DNA from: an uncultured bacterium
Lineage (GTDB): Bacteria; Methylomirabilota; Methylomirabilia; Methylomirabilales; CSP1-5
Assembly: GCA_964558395.1 (NCBI GenBank)
Contig: CAZLDS010000004.1
Span: 20,897-84,896, forward strand
Direction of reading: 5' to 3'
DNA length: 64,000 bases
Below the pieces are notes generated by a model. The model did no database searches, was not told the DNA's origin, and saw nothing but the letters and a program-made list of their open reading frames with translations. Positions within the stretch are counted from its first letter, which is position 1. Each line of letters opens with the position of its first letter. The translations under genes and the position numbers were made by a program. Positions 2,454 through 25,894 of this stretch are shown here, piece after piece.

Positions 2454-3593
2454 GTGGAACGCAAAGCTGATACGCAACGCCGGATGACAGACTCCGTCTC
2501 TTTCTCGGGCCTGATCCTTCGCGAAAAGGACCCGGAGAATCTGGAATTTCCGTTCTCCACCCTCTCTACCTTCATCACACCGAACGAGCAGTTCTTCATC
2601 CGTTCCCACTTCGCTGTGCCGAAACTGAACCCTCGCAGCTGGCGGCTCACGGTCGAAGGGTTGGTCGATCGGCCTCTCGAAATCAGTTACAAGGACTTGC
2701 TGAACTTGCCGTCCCGTTCGATGATGATGACCCTCGAATGCGCGGGAAACAGCCGTATTTTCCTGACGCCCAAAGTCGGCGGCTTGCAGTGGGGGTTGGG
2801 CGCCGTGGGAAACGCGGAATGGACAGGTGTCCCCCTTGCGGTCGTGTTGGAGCGTGCCGGGGTACGCCCGGGCGCCGTCGAGGTGGTGCTGGAGGGCGCG
2901 GATGCGGGCGAGATCAAAAAGGACCCGCAATCGCCCGGGAAGATCCATTTTGCCCGCAGTCTGCCCCTGGAAAAAGCGTTGCGGTCAGACGTGGTCCTCG
3001 CCTACGAAATGAACGGCACGCAGCTCCCCGTCGCACATGGCTTCCCCCTGCGGGCCGTCGTGCCGGGCTGGTATGCCATGGCGTCGGTCAAATGGCTCAC
3101 CCGCATCGTCGTCACTGACCGCGTCTTCCAAGGCTACTTTCAGACGGCCGATTACACCTACTGGCACCAGCGCGAGGGGCTGCCGATCCAACTGCTGCCT
3201 GTGGCCGAGATAGAGGTCAAAGCCCAGATCGCGCGTCCCGCGTTGCACGAAGTGGTCCCAGCACATTCAGTCTATCGGATGCACGGCGCCGCGTGGGCCG
3301 GAGAATCGGAGGTGGCCAAGGTGGAGGTCAGCACGAATGCGGGGCGCACGTGGAAGGCCGCAGAGTTGCTCAGCGCCTCGTCCAGGTATGCGTGGTGCTT
3401 GTGGGAATACCGATGGCGCACCCCGCCACGCGTGGGACGATATATCGTGATGGCGCGGGCGACCGACGCCCGTGGGCGCGTGCAACCCACGCACCGTGAT
3501 CCCCATCGTGGAACGTACATGATCAGCCACGTTCAACCGATCGAGGTCGACGTCCAGCAGCCACCCAGACCGACCTCCGCGTACACCATCTAA
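2454..3593 (+). CDS. Sulfite oxidase family molybdopterin oxidoreductase (Mo-co binding plus dimerisation domains), no signal peptide
   Basis: 379-aa ORF. TLECAGNSR carries the Mo-ligand Cys motif of the sulfite oxidase / YedY superfamily. The C-terminal Ig-like Mo-co dimerisation region is present (GAAWAGESEVAKVEVSTNAGRTW). The start could be GTG 2454 or ATG 2484. Confidence 0.85.
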   Translation: MERKADTQRRMTDSVSFSGLILREKDPENLEFPFSTLSTFITPNEQFFIRSHFAVPKLNPRSWRLTVEGLVDRPLEISYKDLLNLPSRSMMMTLECAGNSRIFLTPKVGGLQWGLGAVGNAEWTGVPLAVVLERAGVRPGAVEVVLEGADAGEIKKDPQSPGKIHFARSLPLEKALRSDVVLAYEMNGTQLPVAHGFPLRAVVPGWYAMASVKWLTRIVVTDRVFQGYFQTADYTYWHQREGLPIQLLPVAEIEVKAQIARPALHEVVPAHSVYRMHGAAWAGESEVAKVEVSTNAGRTWKAAELLSASSRYAWCLWEYRWRTPPRVGRYIVMARATDARGRVQPTHRDPHRGTYMISHVQPIEVDVQQPPRPTSAYTI

Positions 3594-19944: not shown

Positions 19945-21117
19945 CTAACGCAGCTGCGTCATATCAATGAAGTCGCCGTCTGTCATGACCGCGGCGTGTT
20001 CGATGTAATTCTGGAGTTCGCGCACGTTTCCCGGCCAGTCGTACTGCAGCAGCAGCCGGAGGGTCCTGGGCGTGACCCCACTAATCTGCTTGTCATTGTT
20101 TGAGTTCAGTTGCTGGATGAAGTGATGAACGAGCAGGGGGATATCATCTTTTCGCTCCCTCAAGGGGGGCATCGTGACGCTGATGACATCGAGCCGATAG
20201 AACAGGTCTTCCCGGAAGCGGCCAGCCTTGACGAGGCCCTTCAGGTCTTGATTCGTCGCCACGATAATACGCACATCGACCCGGGTCGACTGACTCTGTC
20301 CCACCCGTCGAAACTCCCGATTATGAATCACCCGCAACAGCTTCGCCTGAAGCGGCAGTGGCAACTCCGCCACCTCGTCCAGGAACACCGTCCCCGTATC
20401 TCCGAGTTGGAAGACTCCTACGCGATCCCCCACTGCTGACGTGAAGGCCCCCCGGACATGGCCAAACATCTCGCTCTCCATGAGCCCTTCGGGAATCGCC
20501 GCACAATCCAACACGACGAAGGGGCGGCCTGCGCGGCGGCCACTATCATGAATTGCCCGGGCCACCAACTCTTTCCCGGTGCCACTTTCCCCATAGATAC
20601 AGACGTTGGCCTCTGAGTGAGCTACTTTCATGACCCAGCCATACACCTCGCGCATCGCGTCGGATTTGCCGACGATCTGATCCGCAAATAGCCATTCCTC
20701 ATTGCTCTTATGAGGCTTGGCCAACGCAGGACCGCCCTCGGCACTTAAGTGGCTGCGTGTCAACACGCGTTCCATGACGGCCAGCAACGACGCACGCGAA
20801 AATGGCTTACTCAGGACGTCAAAGGCCCCGGCGGCCGTGCACTCAGCCAGCAAGGCGCTGTCGGCCGTTCCCGCGATGACGACGATGGCCGCATTCGGGG
20901 CCTGGCGCTGAATAGTCGTGAAGAACTTCCGTCCATCCGCGGACGTCTCGTCCAGATCGACGAAGACGGCATAAAATTGCTTTTCCTTTAGGAGCTGAGG
21001 TGCGTCAGCCCAGGATGCAATCGCCACCCTCGTGACCCAAGGCGAGGAGAGAAGCGGCTTCGTATATTCCGCGGCCGCTGAGGAACTTCCCACGATCAGG
21101 ACCTGGGGTGCCTTCAT
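19945..21117 (-). CDS. Sigma-54-dependent AAA+ activator (bEBP) with a degenerate receiver and no C-terminal HTH
   Basis: Walker A GESGTGKE, sigma-54 contact loop GAFTSA (variant of GAFTGA), and NVRELQN near the end. The protein stops 17 aa later with no Fis-type HTH. The N-terminal REC has GSSS in place of the acidic DD pair. Confidence 0.85.
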   Translation of the reverse strand: MKAPQVLIVGSSSAAAEYTKPLLSSPWVTRVAIASWADAPQLLKEKQFYAVFVDLDETSADGRKFFTTIQRQAPNAAIVVIAGTADSALLAECTAAGAFDVLSKPFSRASLLAVMERVLTRSHLSAEGGPALAKPHKSNEEWLFADQIVGKSDAMREVYGWVMKVAHSEANVCIYGESGTGKELVARAIHDSGRRAGRPFVVLDCAAIPEGLMESEMFGHVRGAFTSAVGDRVGVFQLGDTGTVFLDEVAELPLPLQAKLLRVIHNREFRRVGQSQSTRVDVRIIVATNQDLKGLVKAGRFREDLFYRLDVISVTMPPLRERKDDIPLLVHHFIQQLNSNNDKQISGVTPRTLRLLLQYDWPGNVRELQNYIEHAAVMTDGDFIDMTQLR

Positions 21118-21553: not shown

Positions 21554-21582
21554 GAAAAACCACACACGTACACTCCTACGTG
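21554..21582 (-). terminator. Candidate intrinsic terminator of the ccdA / redoxin operon
   Basis: The minus strand reads CACGTA-GGAGTG-TACGTG, followed 4 nt later by GGTTTTTCG. It lies 36 nt after the TAG stop at 21618. Confidence 0.4.
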
Positions 21583-21617
21583 CAGGAAAGTTGCAGACCC
21601 GGACGCGCAAAGCCAGC

Positions 21618-22166
21618 CTATTCACCCAGGAGGTGTCCAATCATCGCCTCCATCTCGGCGTATCCTCCCTCACCGATACGCGTGTAACGGATGATCCCCT
21701 GCTTGTCAATGAGGTGAAGGGTAGGCCAGTATCGGGTGCGGTATCGGTTCCATGTGGCAAAGTCGTTGTCGAGGGCGACTGGATACGAGATCCCCAGCTC
21801 TTTGCAGGCTGATGTCACCTTGTCCAGCGGCTTTTCCCAACCAAACTCGGGTGAGTGGATGCCAATGATCGCGAGACCCTGAGGCCCGAATCGTTTATGC
21901 CAATCCACCAACTGGGGGATTGTGTTCCGACAGTTTATTCACCCGTAGGTCCAAAATTCCAGAAGGATAACCTTTCCGCGAAGATCGGCGAGGCGCACCG
22001 GTGCAGAATTGATCCACACCTGGTTGGTGAGCTCTGGGGCCCGCTGGCCGATCAGTGATGCTTCTACCCACGCCAGCGAGAGCCATACGATCCCCAGCGT
22101 GGTGACGATAATCCAAGGTTTGAAACGTCTTTGGGTTCTCATCGCTTGCGCTGACAACGGAATCAT
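21618..22166 (-). CDS. TlpA / DipZ-C-terminal-type thioredoxin-fold thiol:disulfide oxidoreductase; probable selenoprotein (UxxC) with in-frame TGA at 21941-21939
   Basis: ORFs 21939-22166 and 21618-21911 are in the same frame and are separated only by a TGA. Read-through gives LRGKVILLEFWTYG-U-INCRNTIPQLVDWHKRFGPQGLAIIGIHSPEF...YWPTLHLIDKQGIIRY, with the TGA exactly at the first Cys of the redox CxxC. There is an N-terminal signal anchor, and ccdA lies immediately upstream. Confidence 0.8.
21901..21922 (-). promoter_or_regulatory. Candidate bacterial SECIS hairpin for the redoxin UGA
   Basis: The mRNA CAAUCCCC-CAGUU-GG(U)GGAUUG starts 20 nt after the UGA. It has an 8-bp stem with a bulged U and GU in the apical loop, which lies about 28-32 nt from the UGA. 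Confidence 0.45.
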
Positions 22167-22240: not shown

Positions 22241-22987
22241 TTAGAGACGCTGAAAGAGCCATTCAGGCGTGAAGTGCAGCGCGAAAGTCGAGAGGAGGGT
22301 GAAATAGTCCGTCAAAAGCAATACGCCCACTAGGATGAGCAAGAGACCGCTCCCGCGACTCACCCAGGGGAGCAGGCGCGTGAACCGACGGAAGAAGTAG
22401 AGGAACCGCTCAAAAAGCAGCGCGCTGAGAAAGAAAGGAATGGCGAGCCCCGCGGAGTAGGCCACGAGCAGGAGGATGCCCTGCCCGACGGTCTGGGAGG
22501 TGCTTGCCATGACCAGGATCGAACCGAGAATGGGGCCCACACACGGAATCCATCCGGCGGCAAAGGTCACGCCTACCAGGAAGGCCCCCAGGTAGCCACC
22601 GGGTTGGACCTTCAAGTCCACGTGTCTTTCTCGCATCAGGAACGGGAGGCTGAGCCATCCGGCGATGTGCAGCCCAAACAGAATAACCAACAGCCCACCG
22701 ATTTTGCGAATGACGAGCTGATAATCAAACAGGACCTGGCCGAGTGCGGTTGCTGAGGCCCCGAAGGCGATGAATATGCTCGAGAATCCAACAATAAAGG
22801 CCACGGAATGCGAGAGGAGAAGGCGTCGATTCTTGGCATGAGGAGCTGAGCCTTGCACCTCCTCCACGGAGAGACCACCTACGAAAGCGAGGTAGGAAGG
22901 GATGAGGGGAAAGACACAGGGCGAAAGGAACGAGAGCAGACCTGCCCCCATGGCTACCAAGACCGATACTTGCGCCGCCGCGCTCAT
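22241..22987 (-). CDS. ccdA: Cytochrome c biogenesis / thiol-reductant transfer membrane protein CcdA (DsbD core family)
   Basis: 248 aa with 6 or more TM segments. The two conserved membrane Cys motifs are present: LSPCVFPLIPSYL and WIPCVGPILGSIL. Confidence 0.9.
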   Translation of the reverse strand: MSAAAQVSVLVAMGAGLLSFLSPCVFPLIPSYLAFVGGLSVEEVQGSAPHAKNRRLLLSHSVAFIVGFSSIFIAFGASATALGQVLFDYQLVIRKIGGLLVILFGLHIAGWLSLPFLMRERHVDLKVQPGGYLGAFLVGVTFAAGWIPCVGPILGSILVMASTSQTVGQGILLLVAYSAGLAIPFFLSALLFERFLYFFRRFTRLLPWVSRGSGLLLILVGVLLLTDYFTLLSTFALHFTPEWLFQRL

Positions 22988-23186: not shown

Positions 23187-24002
23187 TCAAGGGTGGCTGC
23201 CTTCGGAAAAGACGAGGGCACACTCGACGAGCTCGTCCCAGCCTACATCCGACACCAGCGCGTAAGTCATGTCCCCGCTATCCCAAAGGAGGATGTGTTT
23301 TCCCTGATACGCAGCGCTATAAAAGACCATACCCGATAGCTCCACCTTCTCGAGGCCCTCCAGCGAACCGCCATATCGCGGAAAGGCGAAGAGTGAGATG
23401 ATGTTTCGTCCCTTTTCGTACAGGATATACGCCGCCCGATGACCGGCCAGACGCGTGACCCGGCTACCGAGCAGCCGGATCCCCGCAGCGCTATAGTCCG
23501 GCACCCGGACGCGATGCCCGGTGCGCCCTTGAACCCAGACGGCCACCTGCTGGAGGTTCTCACTGGAAAGCTCTGTGGGGTTTTCGAGGGGGGCGAACTT
23601 CATGTGTTCCATGACCAGTTGAGCGACGAGCGGGTGAAGTGCGGGCGGCAAGCGGGGCGTCGCAATCAGATATCCGAGGAGTCCCCCGAGGAAGATGAGA
23701 AGCACCGAGGCGGCCAACGCCAACCACGACGCACGCCACCCCCAGCTCGACGTCCGAGCGGACCGCTTCCCTCCCTCGTCCAGCTCCCCAATCCTCGCTC
23801 GGAGCTTCTCCGCGACATGGGGCGGAACTGGTTCCTGAGAAACCGCCCTTCTGAGTTCTTCCCGGAATGCGTGTTCCGCCTCGACAGCCCGCTGGCAGGA
23901 AGGGCACTCCTGAAGATGCCCTTCGACCTCTAACGTCATCGAGGCGTTAAGTTCCCCGTCGCAATACGCTTGAAGAAACCGTGCAACCTCAGGACACCTC
24001 AT
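23187..24002 (-). CDS. Membrane-spanning anti-sigma factor with an N-terminal zinc-binding (zf-HC2 / ZAS-type HxxxCxxC) domain
   Basis: MRCPEVARFLQAYCDGELNASMTLEVEGHLQECPSCQ, then one TM segment (WLALAASVLLIFLGGLLGYLI) and an extracytoplasmic domain of about 160 aa. ATG 24002 is preceded by GGAGGA. It sits directly after the ECF sigma gene. Confidence 0.85.
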   Translation of the reverse strand: MRCPEVARFLQAYCDGELNASMTLEVEGHLQECPSCQRAVEAEHAFREELRRAVSQEPVPPHVAEKLRARIGELDEGGKRSARTSSWGWRASWLALAASVLLIFLGGLLGYLIATPRLPPALHPLVAQLVMEHMKFAPLENPTELSSENLQQVAVWVQGRTGHRVRVPDYSAAGIRLLGSRVTRLAGHRAAYILYEKGRNIISLFAFPRYGGSLEGLEKVELSGMVFYSAAYQGKHILLWDSGDMTYALVSDVGWDELVECALVFSEGSHP

Positions 24003-24018
24003 CCGTCCTCCTTCTAAC

Positions 24019-24567
24019 CTATTCGCTCTTCGTGTAGTCCTGAAGAGCGTCTCGCAACGCCTGCCGGCCACGGTACAGCCGCGACATCACGGTCCCGATG
24101 GGACACTGGGAGATCTCTGCGATCTCCCGATAGCTACAGCCCTCGAGATCCGCCAGGACCACCGTCAGGCGCAGCTTCGGCGGAAGGGCCGCGATGGCCC
24201 GCTGAATCTCCTCGCCCGTCAACCGGCGAATGAGATCGACCTCGGGAGCCCGGGACATCACGCTCCCGCGCTCCGCCTCCCGGTAGACTCGCTCCTCGTC
24301 AAAGTCGACTCCCTGCGCAGAGGCCTGCCGGATCCGATTAACAAAGAGATTGTGCAAGATGGCAAAGAGCCAAGCCCGACAATCGGTCCCCTGTTGGAAC
24401 TGATGGAAGAAGCGGTATGCCCTGAGGAACGTCTCTTGAAAAAGATCCTCCGCCTCGCTCTTATTTCGCGTGAGCCGCAGGGCCGCGTTGTATATTCGCT
24501 GCATATGGACCAGGGCAATCTCCTCAAATTCTTGCCGCCCTGGGTCTCCGCGATCGGGCCCCATCAC
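24019..24567 (-). CDS. ECF-type RNA polymerase sigma-70 family factor
   Basis: 182 aa. Region 2 (AEDLFQETFLRAYRFF ... WLFAILHNLFVNRIR) and region 4 (CSYREIAEISQCPIGTVMSRLYRGRQAL) are present. The start is GTG 24567 or ATG 24564. Confidence 0.9.
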   Translation of the reverse strand: MMGPDRGDPGRQEFEEIALVHMQRIYNAALRLTRNKSEAEDLFQETFLRAYRFFHQFQQGTDCRAWLFAILHNLFVNRIRQASAQGVDFDEERVYREAERGSVMSRAPEVDLIRRLTGEEIQRAIAALPPKLRLTVVLADLEGCSYREIAEISQCPIGTVMSRLYRGRQALRDALQDYTKSE

Positions 24568-24817: not shown

Positions 24818-25894
24818 ATGAAGCAATATGTCTCGGCTGAACTGTCAGTCCTCGCACTTTTGTGGGTAATTCCTACTCTCGCTGGCCCCCTTCCTTATCA
24901 AGGCAGTCTGATCATCGACGGAGCCCCGGTGATCACCGTCCTCGGCAAAGATGCCATCCCGGCCACCAACCGGCCGGAGTTTATGTCGGTCCAGGAACCC
25001 AGTCCAGACTTCCGGGACGACGAACCGGTTCTGGGGGTACGGCGAGGCACGGTGGCCCGGGCCTATTCCCTCTGGCAACTAAACCACCACGAAATTGTCA
25101 ACGACCAGGTGGGAGATCTCCCACTCGCCATTACGTGGTGACCCCTCTGTTTCACGGGCATCGTGTATGTCCGACCAACATATCAGGGAAAACCACTCAC
25201 CTTCGGCGTCAGTGGGATGCTCTGGAAAGACGCCCTCGTCATGTATGATCGGGAGACCGAAACCCTGTGGAGCCACTTTAACGCCAGGGCCATCCACGGG
25301 ACGCTCCGGGGGACGGAGCTCAAACCTTACCCTGCGATTCACACAACATGGGGGGAGTGGAAGCAACTCTATCCCAATAGCAAGGTGCTGTCGAAAAGAG
25401 CGACGCTCGGGGGTATCAGAGGTCCCCATAACGTGTACGCCGGGTATATGGCCGACCCGAATCAGCTCGGGATCTTCGGGACGCGCAATCCGGACCACAC
25501 CCTGCCTGGAAAGGAGCACGTCTTTGGCCTCAAGTTCAAGGACGAGAGGGTGGCCTACCCGCTTCAATATCTGCGTCGCTCTCCGCTGGTCCATGACACG
25601 GTGGCTGGCGAACCGGTCCTCGTGGTGTTCATCGCCCGGGAAGCTACGGCAGTCGCCCTATCTCGTCATGTCGGGGGAAAGACCCTGGACTTCGCGCGTC
25701 TCCGTCAAACCGCAAGAAAATGGCTCATTGAGGATACGTTAACTGGGTCCAGATGGAGGGCACTGAATGGTGAAGCGATCGCTGGCCCACTGAAAGGGTC
25801 CCGCGTCACACCACTGCCAGGACACCAGGTCTTTTGGTTCGCGTGGAAGGGGTTCTACCCGCACACGCGTCTGTGGACCGGAAATAAACCTTGA
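24818..25894 (+). CDS. DUF3179 family exported protein; probable selenoprotein (U-P-L-C) with in-frame TGA at 25139-25141
   Basis: ORFs 24806-25141 and 25163-25894 share a frame. Read-through gives DEPVLGVRRGTVARAYSLWQLNHHEIVNDQVGDLPLAITW-U-PLCFTGIVYVRPTYQGKPLTFGVSGMLWKDALVMYDRETETLWSH, which matches DUF3179 blocks on both sides of the TGA. The TGA sits at the first Cys of the family CPLC motif. An N-terminal signal peptide is present. Confidence 0.8.

Follow-up and report, generated by a model that had tools for sequence, protein, structure and literature searches.

A UGA codon at the active site of a DipZ-type redoxin from Methylomirabilota very probably encodes selenocysteine

Membrane proteins of the CcdA/DsbD type work together with the redoxins TlpA, ResA and DipZ in established electron-relay systems. 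Among the selenoproteins predicted in bacteria, thioredoxin-fold proteins carrying selenocysteine (Sec, U) in a UxxC motif are the commonest kind. Here we describe a redoxin gene on the minus strand, 22166..21618, in 64,000 nucleotides of DNA from an uncultured bacterium of the Methylomirabilota (NC10); this whole stretch, positions 20,897 to 84,896 of contig CAZLDS010000004.1 in assembly GCA_964558395.1, is called the window. The gene is interrupted by a single TGA, which falls on the codon of the catalytic cysteine. Three catalogued families resemble it: 'Redoxin family protein' (PF08534, UxxC; HEU0032618.1 / MBA3499694.1), 'Thiol-disulfide isomerase-like protein' (TlpA-like cd02966, UxxC) and 'Prx-like thiol:disulfide oxidoreductase' (PF00578, UxxC) (PMC13188914, PMC9312934), with HEU0032618.1, MGB1650493.1 and WP_010940744.1 as representative accessions. 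The reading frame, the protein family, the pairing of Sec and Cys codons at one position, a hairpin specific to the Sec forms and synteny, each observed directly, make it very likely that 22166..21618 is a genuine selenocysteine-encoding gene, whose product would be a DipZ-C/TlpA-type thiol:disulfide reductase, secreted or membrane-anchored, in which the redox motif is U-I-N-C.

Reading frame and protein family

Translation of 22166..21618 on the minus strand gives one reading frame, the sole interruption of which is the TGA at 21941-21939. Two open reading frames (ORFs) are listed here, 21939-22166 and 21618-21911, and an earlier note made from the letters of the window had joined them across the TGA. 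They do share a frame, and no stop lies in the nine codons that separate the TGA from the TTG at 21911. The protein reads GKVILLEFWTYG before the TGA and INCRNTIPQLVDWHKRFG after it; over a longer span, LADLRGKVILLEFWTYG precedes the TGA, and INCRNTIPQLVDWHKRFGPQGLAIIGIHSPEF and further on RYWPTLHLIDKQGIIRYTRIGEGGY follow it. As judged from the frame, the Pfam matches, the match to the DipZ structure and the N-termini of orthologs, the gene is complete, with 182 codons from the ATG at 22166 and a TAG stop codon at 21620-21618. Translation probably starts at the ATG at 22142 (MRTQRRFKPW..., 174 codons) rather than at 22166, because the orthologs start with M-G/V-R-K-x-x-F. The N-terminus displays positive charges and a hydrophobic segment that ends in VEA before an S, and the predicted signal peptide is MRTQRRFKPWIIVTTLGIVWLSLAWVEA, followed by SLIG. 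Likewise, the N-termini of the orthologs, in which M-G/V-R-K-x-x-F leads into a hydrophobic stretch and A-x-A, indicate a signal peptide, from which we infer that the redoxin is exported.

With Cys in place of the stop, the redoxin scores 60.3 bits against Pfam AhpC-TSA, 43.0 against Redoxin and 42.4 against Thioredoxin_8, above the gathering thresholds of all three (26-27 bits). Its best match of solved structure is the C-terminal domain of Mycobacterium tuberculosis DipZ (2HYX/5CYY, E=4e-43), aligned over residues 43-181. In this alignment FWAYSCINC of DipZ faces FWTYG-U-INC, placing the UGA opposite the first Cys of the DipZ CxxC, and in the cis-Pro region RYWPA of DipZ faces RYWPT. Both the W-x-x-x-C-x-x-C active site and YWP are present in the redoxin, the first Cys being the UGA codon. 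Read as selenocysteine, the in-frame UGA (21939..21941, minus strand) would occupy the first, nucleophilic position of the U-I-N-C motif. The Pfam scores, which the earlier note had proposed as a check for Redoxin and AhpC-TSA, and the DipZ match agree with its assignment to the TlpA/DipZ-C-type redoxins; the DipZ motif that it had quoted, FWTYSCINC, has to be corrected, as the DipZ sequence reads FWAYSCINC.

The UGA codon among homologs

We fetched 160 homologous loci from one-genome-per-species and metagenome collections, and in 157 of them the motif codon was readable. At the codon aligned to the TGA of the window, 53 loci carry TGA, 73 TGC and 31 TGT. These 53 TGA against 104 TGC/TGT codons at the same position, together with the DipZ alignment, uphold the placement of the UGA at the nucleophilic Cys that had been proposed from the window alone. 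The TGA loci belong to Methylomirabilota/NC10, Binatia and some Chloroflexota, hence to at least three phyla, and the closest relatives of the window are metagenome-assembled genomes (MAGs) of NC10/Methylomirabilota, with 86-88% amino-acid identity. In a neighbor-joining tree one large Sec clade unites Methylomirabilota, Binatia and some unassigned metagenome contigs, and Chloroflexota form separate Sec lineages (L031/L140 and L130).

Both flanks of the TGA are conserved at the protein level in the 53 loci, and no frameshifts were found. Directly 5' of the TGA, and in the same frame, stands the conserved WINS.P..LADLRGKV.LLEFWT.G. Substitutions upstream of the TGA number 101, 58 and 228 at codon positions 1, 2 and 3, and of 295 codon differences in this part 178 are synonymous versus 117 nonsynonymous. 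Sequence conservation of this kind points to purifying selection on both flanks. The third-position bias upstream further indicates translation of the N-terminal 'fragment' in the very frame that leads to the TGA.

Could the TGA be a genuine stop, leaving a pseudogene or two small genes, one for a 75-aa N-terminal fragment and one for a C-terminal redoxin fragment of ~100 aa? TGA is the commonest stop codon of the window, where it ends 22 of 48 confident genes, and gene callers give only the C-terminal fragment in every public record. Against a stop stands the position of the TGA, at exactly the catalytic-Cys codon in loci from three phyla or more, with intact frames and both flanks under purifying selection. 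Moreover, as the DipZ alignment makes clear, a fragment without the CxxC and the first beta-strands would not work as a redoxin, the annotated fragments have no conserved start, and the hairpin described below goes with the TGA. A genuine stop is therefore very unlikely in our estimate. The ordinary use of TGA as a stop in the window also means that the genetic code is not reassigned, and we rejected global UGA reassignment on this ground.

A sequencing or assembly error that turned TGC or TGT into TGA would need only one base change. The same TGA recurs in 53 loci whose assemblies are independent and stem from different samples and studies, and the comparative data refute such an error, whose probability we put close to nil.

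The public records of this redoxin deserve separate mention. Its nearest proteins in the databases belong to MAGs of Methylomirabilales/NC10 and Binatia. All protein records of the NC10 and Binatia orthologs (P0001, P0012, P0017, P0033, P0115 and their clusters) are C-terminal pieces of 84-110 aa, named 'redoxin domain-containing protein' or 'hypothetical protein', just as had been foreseen from the window sequence. Their annotated starts are inconsistent and lie just past the motif (MNCRNT, MHTIPQ, MPQLVD, LVDWHK). These fragment records are a systematic misannotation. As a consequence, the active-site half of the redoxin, and its nature as a selenoprotein, are invisible to any downstream analysis of public records. 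None of the NCBIfam selenoprotein models covers the clade, and a dedicated model would fix dozens of MAG annotations.

The hairpin downstream of the UGA

Downstream of the UGA the mRNA can form a hairpin that resembles a bacterial selenocysteine insertion sequence (SECIS). It lies at 21901..21922 (minus strand), nt 20-41 from the U of the UGA, as the earlier note had described it, and reads CAAUCCCC / CAGUU / GG(U)GGAUUG. The stem, CAAUCC(C)CC / GG(U)GGAUUG, comprises 8 bp and contains a single C.U mismatch (or else a bulged U), with an energy of -10.0 kcal/mol, and the apical loop AGUU is found at 21913-21910, 25 nt after the UGA. Bacterial SECIS elements are described as having an upper stem of 4-16 bp; an apical loop of 3-9 nt with G in its two initial positions, usually G followed by G or U; a distance of 16-37 nt from UGA to loop; and a minimum free energy (MFE) of -7.5 kcal/mol or lower (PMC13188914). 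The hairpin of the window lies within all four of these ranges.

For each homolog we scored, in the 66 nt downstream of the TGA or of the corresponding Cys codon, the best simple hairpin with a GU-containing apical loop at nt 24-36. A hairpin of -5.5 kcal/mol or lower is present in 42/42 distinct Sec sequences, versus 4/94 of the Cys type; the mean energies are -9.2 and -0.45 kcal/mol, respectively (Mann-Whitney p ~1e-24, for sequences that are not independent). The contrast between Sec and Cys forms is categorical. Likewise, when nt 13-50 are folded without constraint, the MFE is -11.6 kcal/mol for Sec versus -6.9 kcal/mol for Cys forms. In a few Sec orthologs the core hairpin amounts to only -5.5 to -7.2 kcal/mol. 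Conservation of the hairpin among UGA orthologs, named as a check when the locus was first noticed, thus holds without exception, and in the compared sequences TGA and hairpin are each far beyond chance.

The hairpin stays in the same place, but each of five clades builds it from a sequence of its own, with GU in every apical loop of the 42 distinct sequences. The clade of the window has AUCCCC/CAGUU/GG(U)GGAU. In L003, L083, L006 and L092 the hairpin is UUCCAC/AGUUG/GUGGA, the register of which is moved by 1 nt through two synonymous changes. A clade with the motif U-YNC has UCCCGC/AGUU/GCGGGA, L031 has UUCCCGC/GGU/GCGGGAA and L106 has CCCAUC/GUU/GGUGGG. Finally, L130 has ACUCCCUC/GGU/GAGGGAGU. 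This last locus, a Sec form outside the main Methylomirabilota/Binatia clade, is sister to L023, a Cys form, in the neighbor-joining tree. L130 reads CCC UCG GUG AGG GAG UGG and forms a perfect 8-bp stem, whereas L023 reads CCU UCA GUA AAA GCC UGG and forms no stem. The pair indicates an independent switch between Cys and Sec, to which the gain or loss of a SECIS was coupled. Close Sec/Cys pairs of this sort are of interest as cases where the SECIS hairpin is gained or lost together with the UGA.

Two further observations concern the same region. In a few Cys-type homologs (L054, L065, L067, L143) the SECIS position, nt +12 to +50 past the Cys codon, is occupied by a GU-loop hairpin, which in L054 reaches -12 kcal/mol; another Cys-type locus, L044, has a weak match of 23.7 bits to the covariance model described below. 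These hairpins could be fossil SECIS elements or chance. Furthermore, in most orthologs of clades A and B the UGAAUC made up of the Sec codon and the next codon is complementary to a GAUUCG 50 nt downstream, and this pairing is possibly a lower SECIS helix that includes the UGA. In E. coli fdhF the lower SECIS helix takes in the UGA. The candidate helix of the window, 21941-21936 with about 21893-21888 (minus strand), has one pair broken, as it reads AUA instead of AUC.

Several results weigh against the selenoprotein reading. The MFE of the window hairpin is no better than chance, with a z-score of 0.30 versus dinucleotide shuffles, and so the window sequence on its own shows anatomy, not significance; in the earlier note's case for a SECIS from this single sequence, the anatomy stood and the significance did not. 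A covariance model (R1), for which 23 sequences were used, speaks for the selenoprotein reading, as it finds 48/48 Sec-type sources where expected, with 30-59 bits (in the window, 21929..21892 with 52.6 bits), and 1/100 Cys-type loci (652 kb) at the homologous site, with 23.7 bits; what weighs on the other side is that R1 was trained on the same clade, so that its specificity is partly primary-sequence similarity. Strict column covariation is thin, with one compensatory pair (C-G to G-C, 4 distinct sequences), and the covariation score from fixed-register pair counting is a modest 0.141 versus 0.106 for shuffles, partly because the registers of the clades are offset by 1 nt and the sequences are for the most part close relatives. 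Tests of MFE by synonymous recoding are modest as well, and individually weak (z = -1 to -2.4). Finally, neither the 64-kb window nor any fetched locus contains selA, selB, selD or a tRNA-Sec gene: tRNA scans of the window and L001-L013 found no tRNA-Sec, and in the window no tRNA gene of any kind; 20 window proteins, among them every ORF with the size of SelA or SelB, were scanned with NCBIfam and Pfam, and none is a sel gene product; and tblastn with E. coli SelA, SelB and SelD gave no matches in the window and the 160 fetched loci.

Weak covariation and recoding scores are expected for a short element in a conserved coding region with shifting registers, and they leave the case resting on the specificity of the hairpin for Sec over Cys forms more than on classical covariation. 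For a similar reason, since the hairpin registers of the clades differ by one nucleotide, RNAalifold, given 14 sequences aligned without gaps, returned a weak, uninformative structure (-1.86 kcal/mol). A search of the whole window with Rfam at gathering thresholds found nothing.

The hairpin and the missing tRNA genes also bear on whether the UGA is recoded to another amino acid, either to Cys through a non-canonical tRNA-Cys(UCA) that works with SelB (Vargas-Rodriguez et al. 2018, as cited in PMC13582414), or to Trp or Cys through near-cognate read-through. SECIS-dependent insertion of Cys would leave an identical genomic signature, and the window has no tRNA gene that would show which tRNA reads the UGA. 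Yet the mechanism is rare and its prior probability low, TGC or TGT would suffice for Cys, as they do in 104 homologs, and the use of UGA as a stop excludes a global reassignment. The background of the phylum also argues for Sec: a Methylomirabilota MAG with 63 predicted selenoprotein genes has been described (PMC13188914, a review), and Sec-type hydrogenases have been reported in Methylomirabilota, the genomes with such hydrogenases being enriched in selABCD (PMC13582414). On balance we consider recoding to an amino acid other than Sec improbable. Under the favored reading of the UGA as Sec, anatomy and comparative data suggest that the hairpin ~20-41 nt past the UGA would act as a bacterial SECIS and recruit SelB-GTP-Sec-tRNA(Sec).

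Operon, active-site variants and relation to known systems

Directly upstream of the redoxin lies ccdA (22241..22987, minus strand; PF02683, 54.8 bits), which encodes a membrane electron transporter of the DsbD_TM type with both conserved cysteines (SPCVFP, IPCVGP). Many Cys-type loci have the same neighbor, as do most of the NC10 Sec-type loci for which the upstream DNA is long enough. Further upstream on the same strand are genes for an anti-sigma factor with an N-terminal zf-HC2 zinc finger (HxxxCxxC; 23187..24071) and an extracytoplasmic function (ECF)-type sigma-70 factor (24019..24567), the latter being the first gene of the cluster sigma / anti-sigma / ccdA / redoxin. This order recurs in NC10 loci L001, L002, L010 and L084, and partly in L098, L103 and L108. 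A stem-loop followed by a T run (21563..21584, minus strand), 34 nt past the redoxin stop codon, resembles a terminator by consensus match only and suggests that the redoxin gene is the operon end. The layout in Binatia is unlike that of NC10: in L008 (about 3063-3581) and L011 (2703-3179) an ECF-sigma-like gene with ~30% identity to that of the window directly precedes the Sec redoxin, and no ccdA was detected within the 4-kb upstream flank. L008 is part of the complete Binatia chromosome OZ244621.1.

By analogy with the CcdA/DsbD-TlpA/ResA/DipZ systems and from gene adjacency, CcdA is presumed to be the reductant of the redoxin. The mature redoxin would be exported by means of its signal peptide, and the adjacent membrane CcdA would keep it reduced by relaying electrons from cytoplasmic thioredoxin. 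The selenolate could then attack disulfides or oxidized residues of envelope substrates, as related reductases would lead one to expect, and Cys+3 would resolve the selenenylsulfide. The genes at the head of the operon, for an ECF sigma factor and an anti-sigma factor with a zinc finger, suggest that it might be induced under envelope or oxidative stress.

A second candidate selenoprotein is encoded 3 kb from the redoxin. The gene for a DUF3179 protein (about 24818..25894, plus strand), which diverges from the sigma factor gene, has an in-frame TGA at 25139-25141 in the motif AITW-U-PLC (UxxC), downstream of which is a GU-loop hairpin, CGGGCAU/CGUGU/AUGUCCG. Its ortholog in L001 (1-886, minus strand) has TGA at the same codon, and DUF3179 (UxxC/T) is a catalogued selenoprotein family (PMC13188914). 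Together with the literature on Methylomirabilota selenoproteomes, this second UxxC gene gives indirect support for the presence of Sec machinery in the genome.

The active site varies among the Sec forms. In a large subclade (L006, L007, L009, L010, L091-L105, L108) the motif is U-I-N-S instead of U-I-N-C, the change being at codon +3 after the TGA. The serine codons are unrelated, AGC/AGT in most loci and TCG in L101, which argues that loss of the resolving Cys was selected and is not an error. ccdA still adjoins the redoxin in these UxxS loci. A third Cys, at residue +45 after the Sec (TSACKELG; 21804-21806 of the window, minus strand), is shared by most Sec forms, among them L106, L130 and the UxxS clade; clade C, L008, L031 and the three Cys-type homologs inspected (L014, L016, L023) lack it. 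Cys+45 could serve as an alternative resolving cysteine. Whether a selenolate can do without a vicinal resolving cysteine is a question for which the UxxS subclade provides a natural experiment, and this subclade is not described for the catalogued redoxin, TlpA-like and Prx-like families in PMC13188914 and PMC9312934.

A broader proposal can be made, though we hold it tentatively and think it rather unlikely: that these proteins form an uncatalogued selenoprotein subfamily, in which an exported, CcdA-fed Sec reductase under ECF-sigma/anti-sigma control has, in the window and its closest relative, a DUF3179 protein with Sec as its partner in a periplasmic selenium redox module, and in which the U-I-N-S subclade, having lost the resolving Cys and retained a clade-specific Cys at +45, uses a different resolving chemistry. 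If true, that chemistry would involve either a selenenylsulfide, intermolecular or with a remote Cys, or a peroxidase-like cycle. On the more modest reading as a Sec-containing redoxin, the locus would add a disulfide reductase that is extracytoplasmic and coupled to CcdA to the selenoproteins of a phylum for which an unusual richness in such proteins was recently reported. Its main practical value lies in the correction of a systematic misannotation, and current understanding is not overturned.

Of the known systems, DipZ (Rv2874) is the nearest. It shares with the redoxin the fold, the motif context (FWAYSCINC, RYWPA, GEG-Y) and a CcdA/DsbD-type membrane module as partner. It differs in having Cys at the active site where the redoxin has Sec, and in having the CcdA-like membrane domain fused N-terminally, together with an extra C-terminal domain, whereas the redoxin is a stand-alone gene of 182 codons with its own signal peptide and CcdA is a separate upstream gene. 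The TlpA/ResA/CcmG reductases, fed by CcdA or DsbD, are likewise exported thioredoxin folds with a CxxC opening helix 1 and a linkage to CcdA. Similarity to the NCBIfam models of this group is weak (58.6 bits against a cut-off of 170 for ResA, 29 against 230 for TlpA, 28 against 123 for DsbE, 33 against 210 for StoA), and because these scores are far under the cut-offs the redoxin is not an ortholog of any of the four; the redoxin neighbors tested include no genes for cytochrome c maturation. Two NCBIfam selenoprotein families, NF041054 ('ResA-like WAxxUGC motif-containing protein') and NF040769 ('SelL-related redox protein'), are also thioredoxin-fold proteins akin to ResA/TlpA. Their motif is UGC in contrast to U-I-N-C, and with 25.6 bits (cut-off 300) and 16.1 bits (cut-off 120) the redoxin belongs to neither, so that the NCBI pipeline misses the gene and outputs fragments.

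The catalogued UxxC families share several features with the redoxin: Pfam domains (PF00578, PF08534 and PF13905 all match the redoxin), Sec as the first residue of UxxC, a bacterial SECIS directly downstream and widespread Cys homologs. With 'Redoxin family protein' the domain and the UxxC agree, in a comparison by description only, and the accessions of the close-ortholog records do not include HEU0032618.1 or MBA3499694.1. The literature searched makes no mention of a DipZ or CcdA link for the catalogued redoxin, TlpA-like and Prx-like families, and PMC2398784, PMC5029168 and PMC1088965 make no mention of redoxin, DipZ or CcdA for them. UxxC redoxin and TlpA-like selenoproteins are already catalogued, and the redoxin described here fits established patterns as a fairly ordinary addition to a well-known class; its UxxS subclade and Cys+45 go modestly beyond the catalogue.

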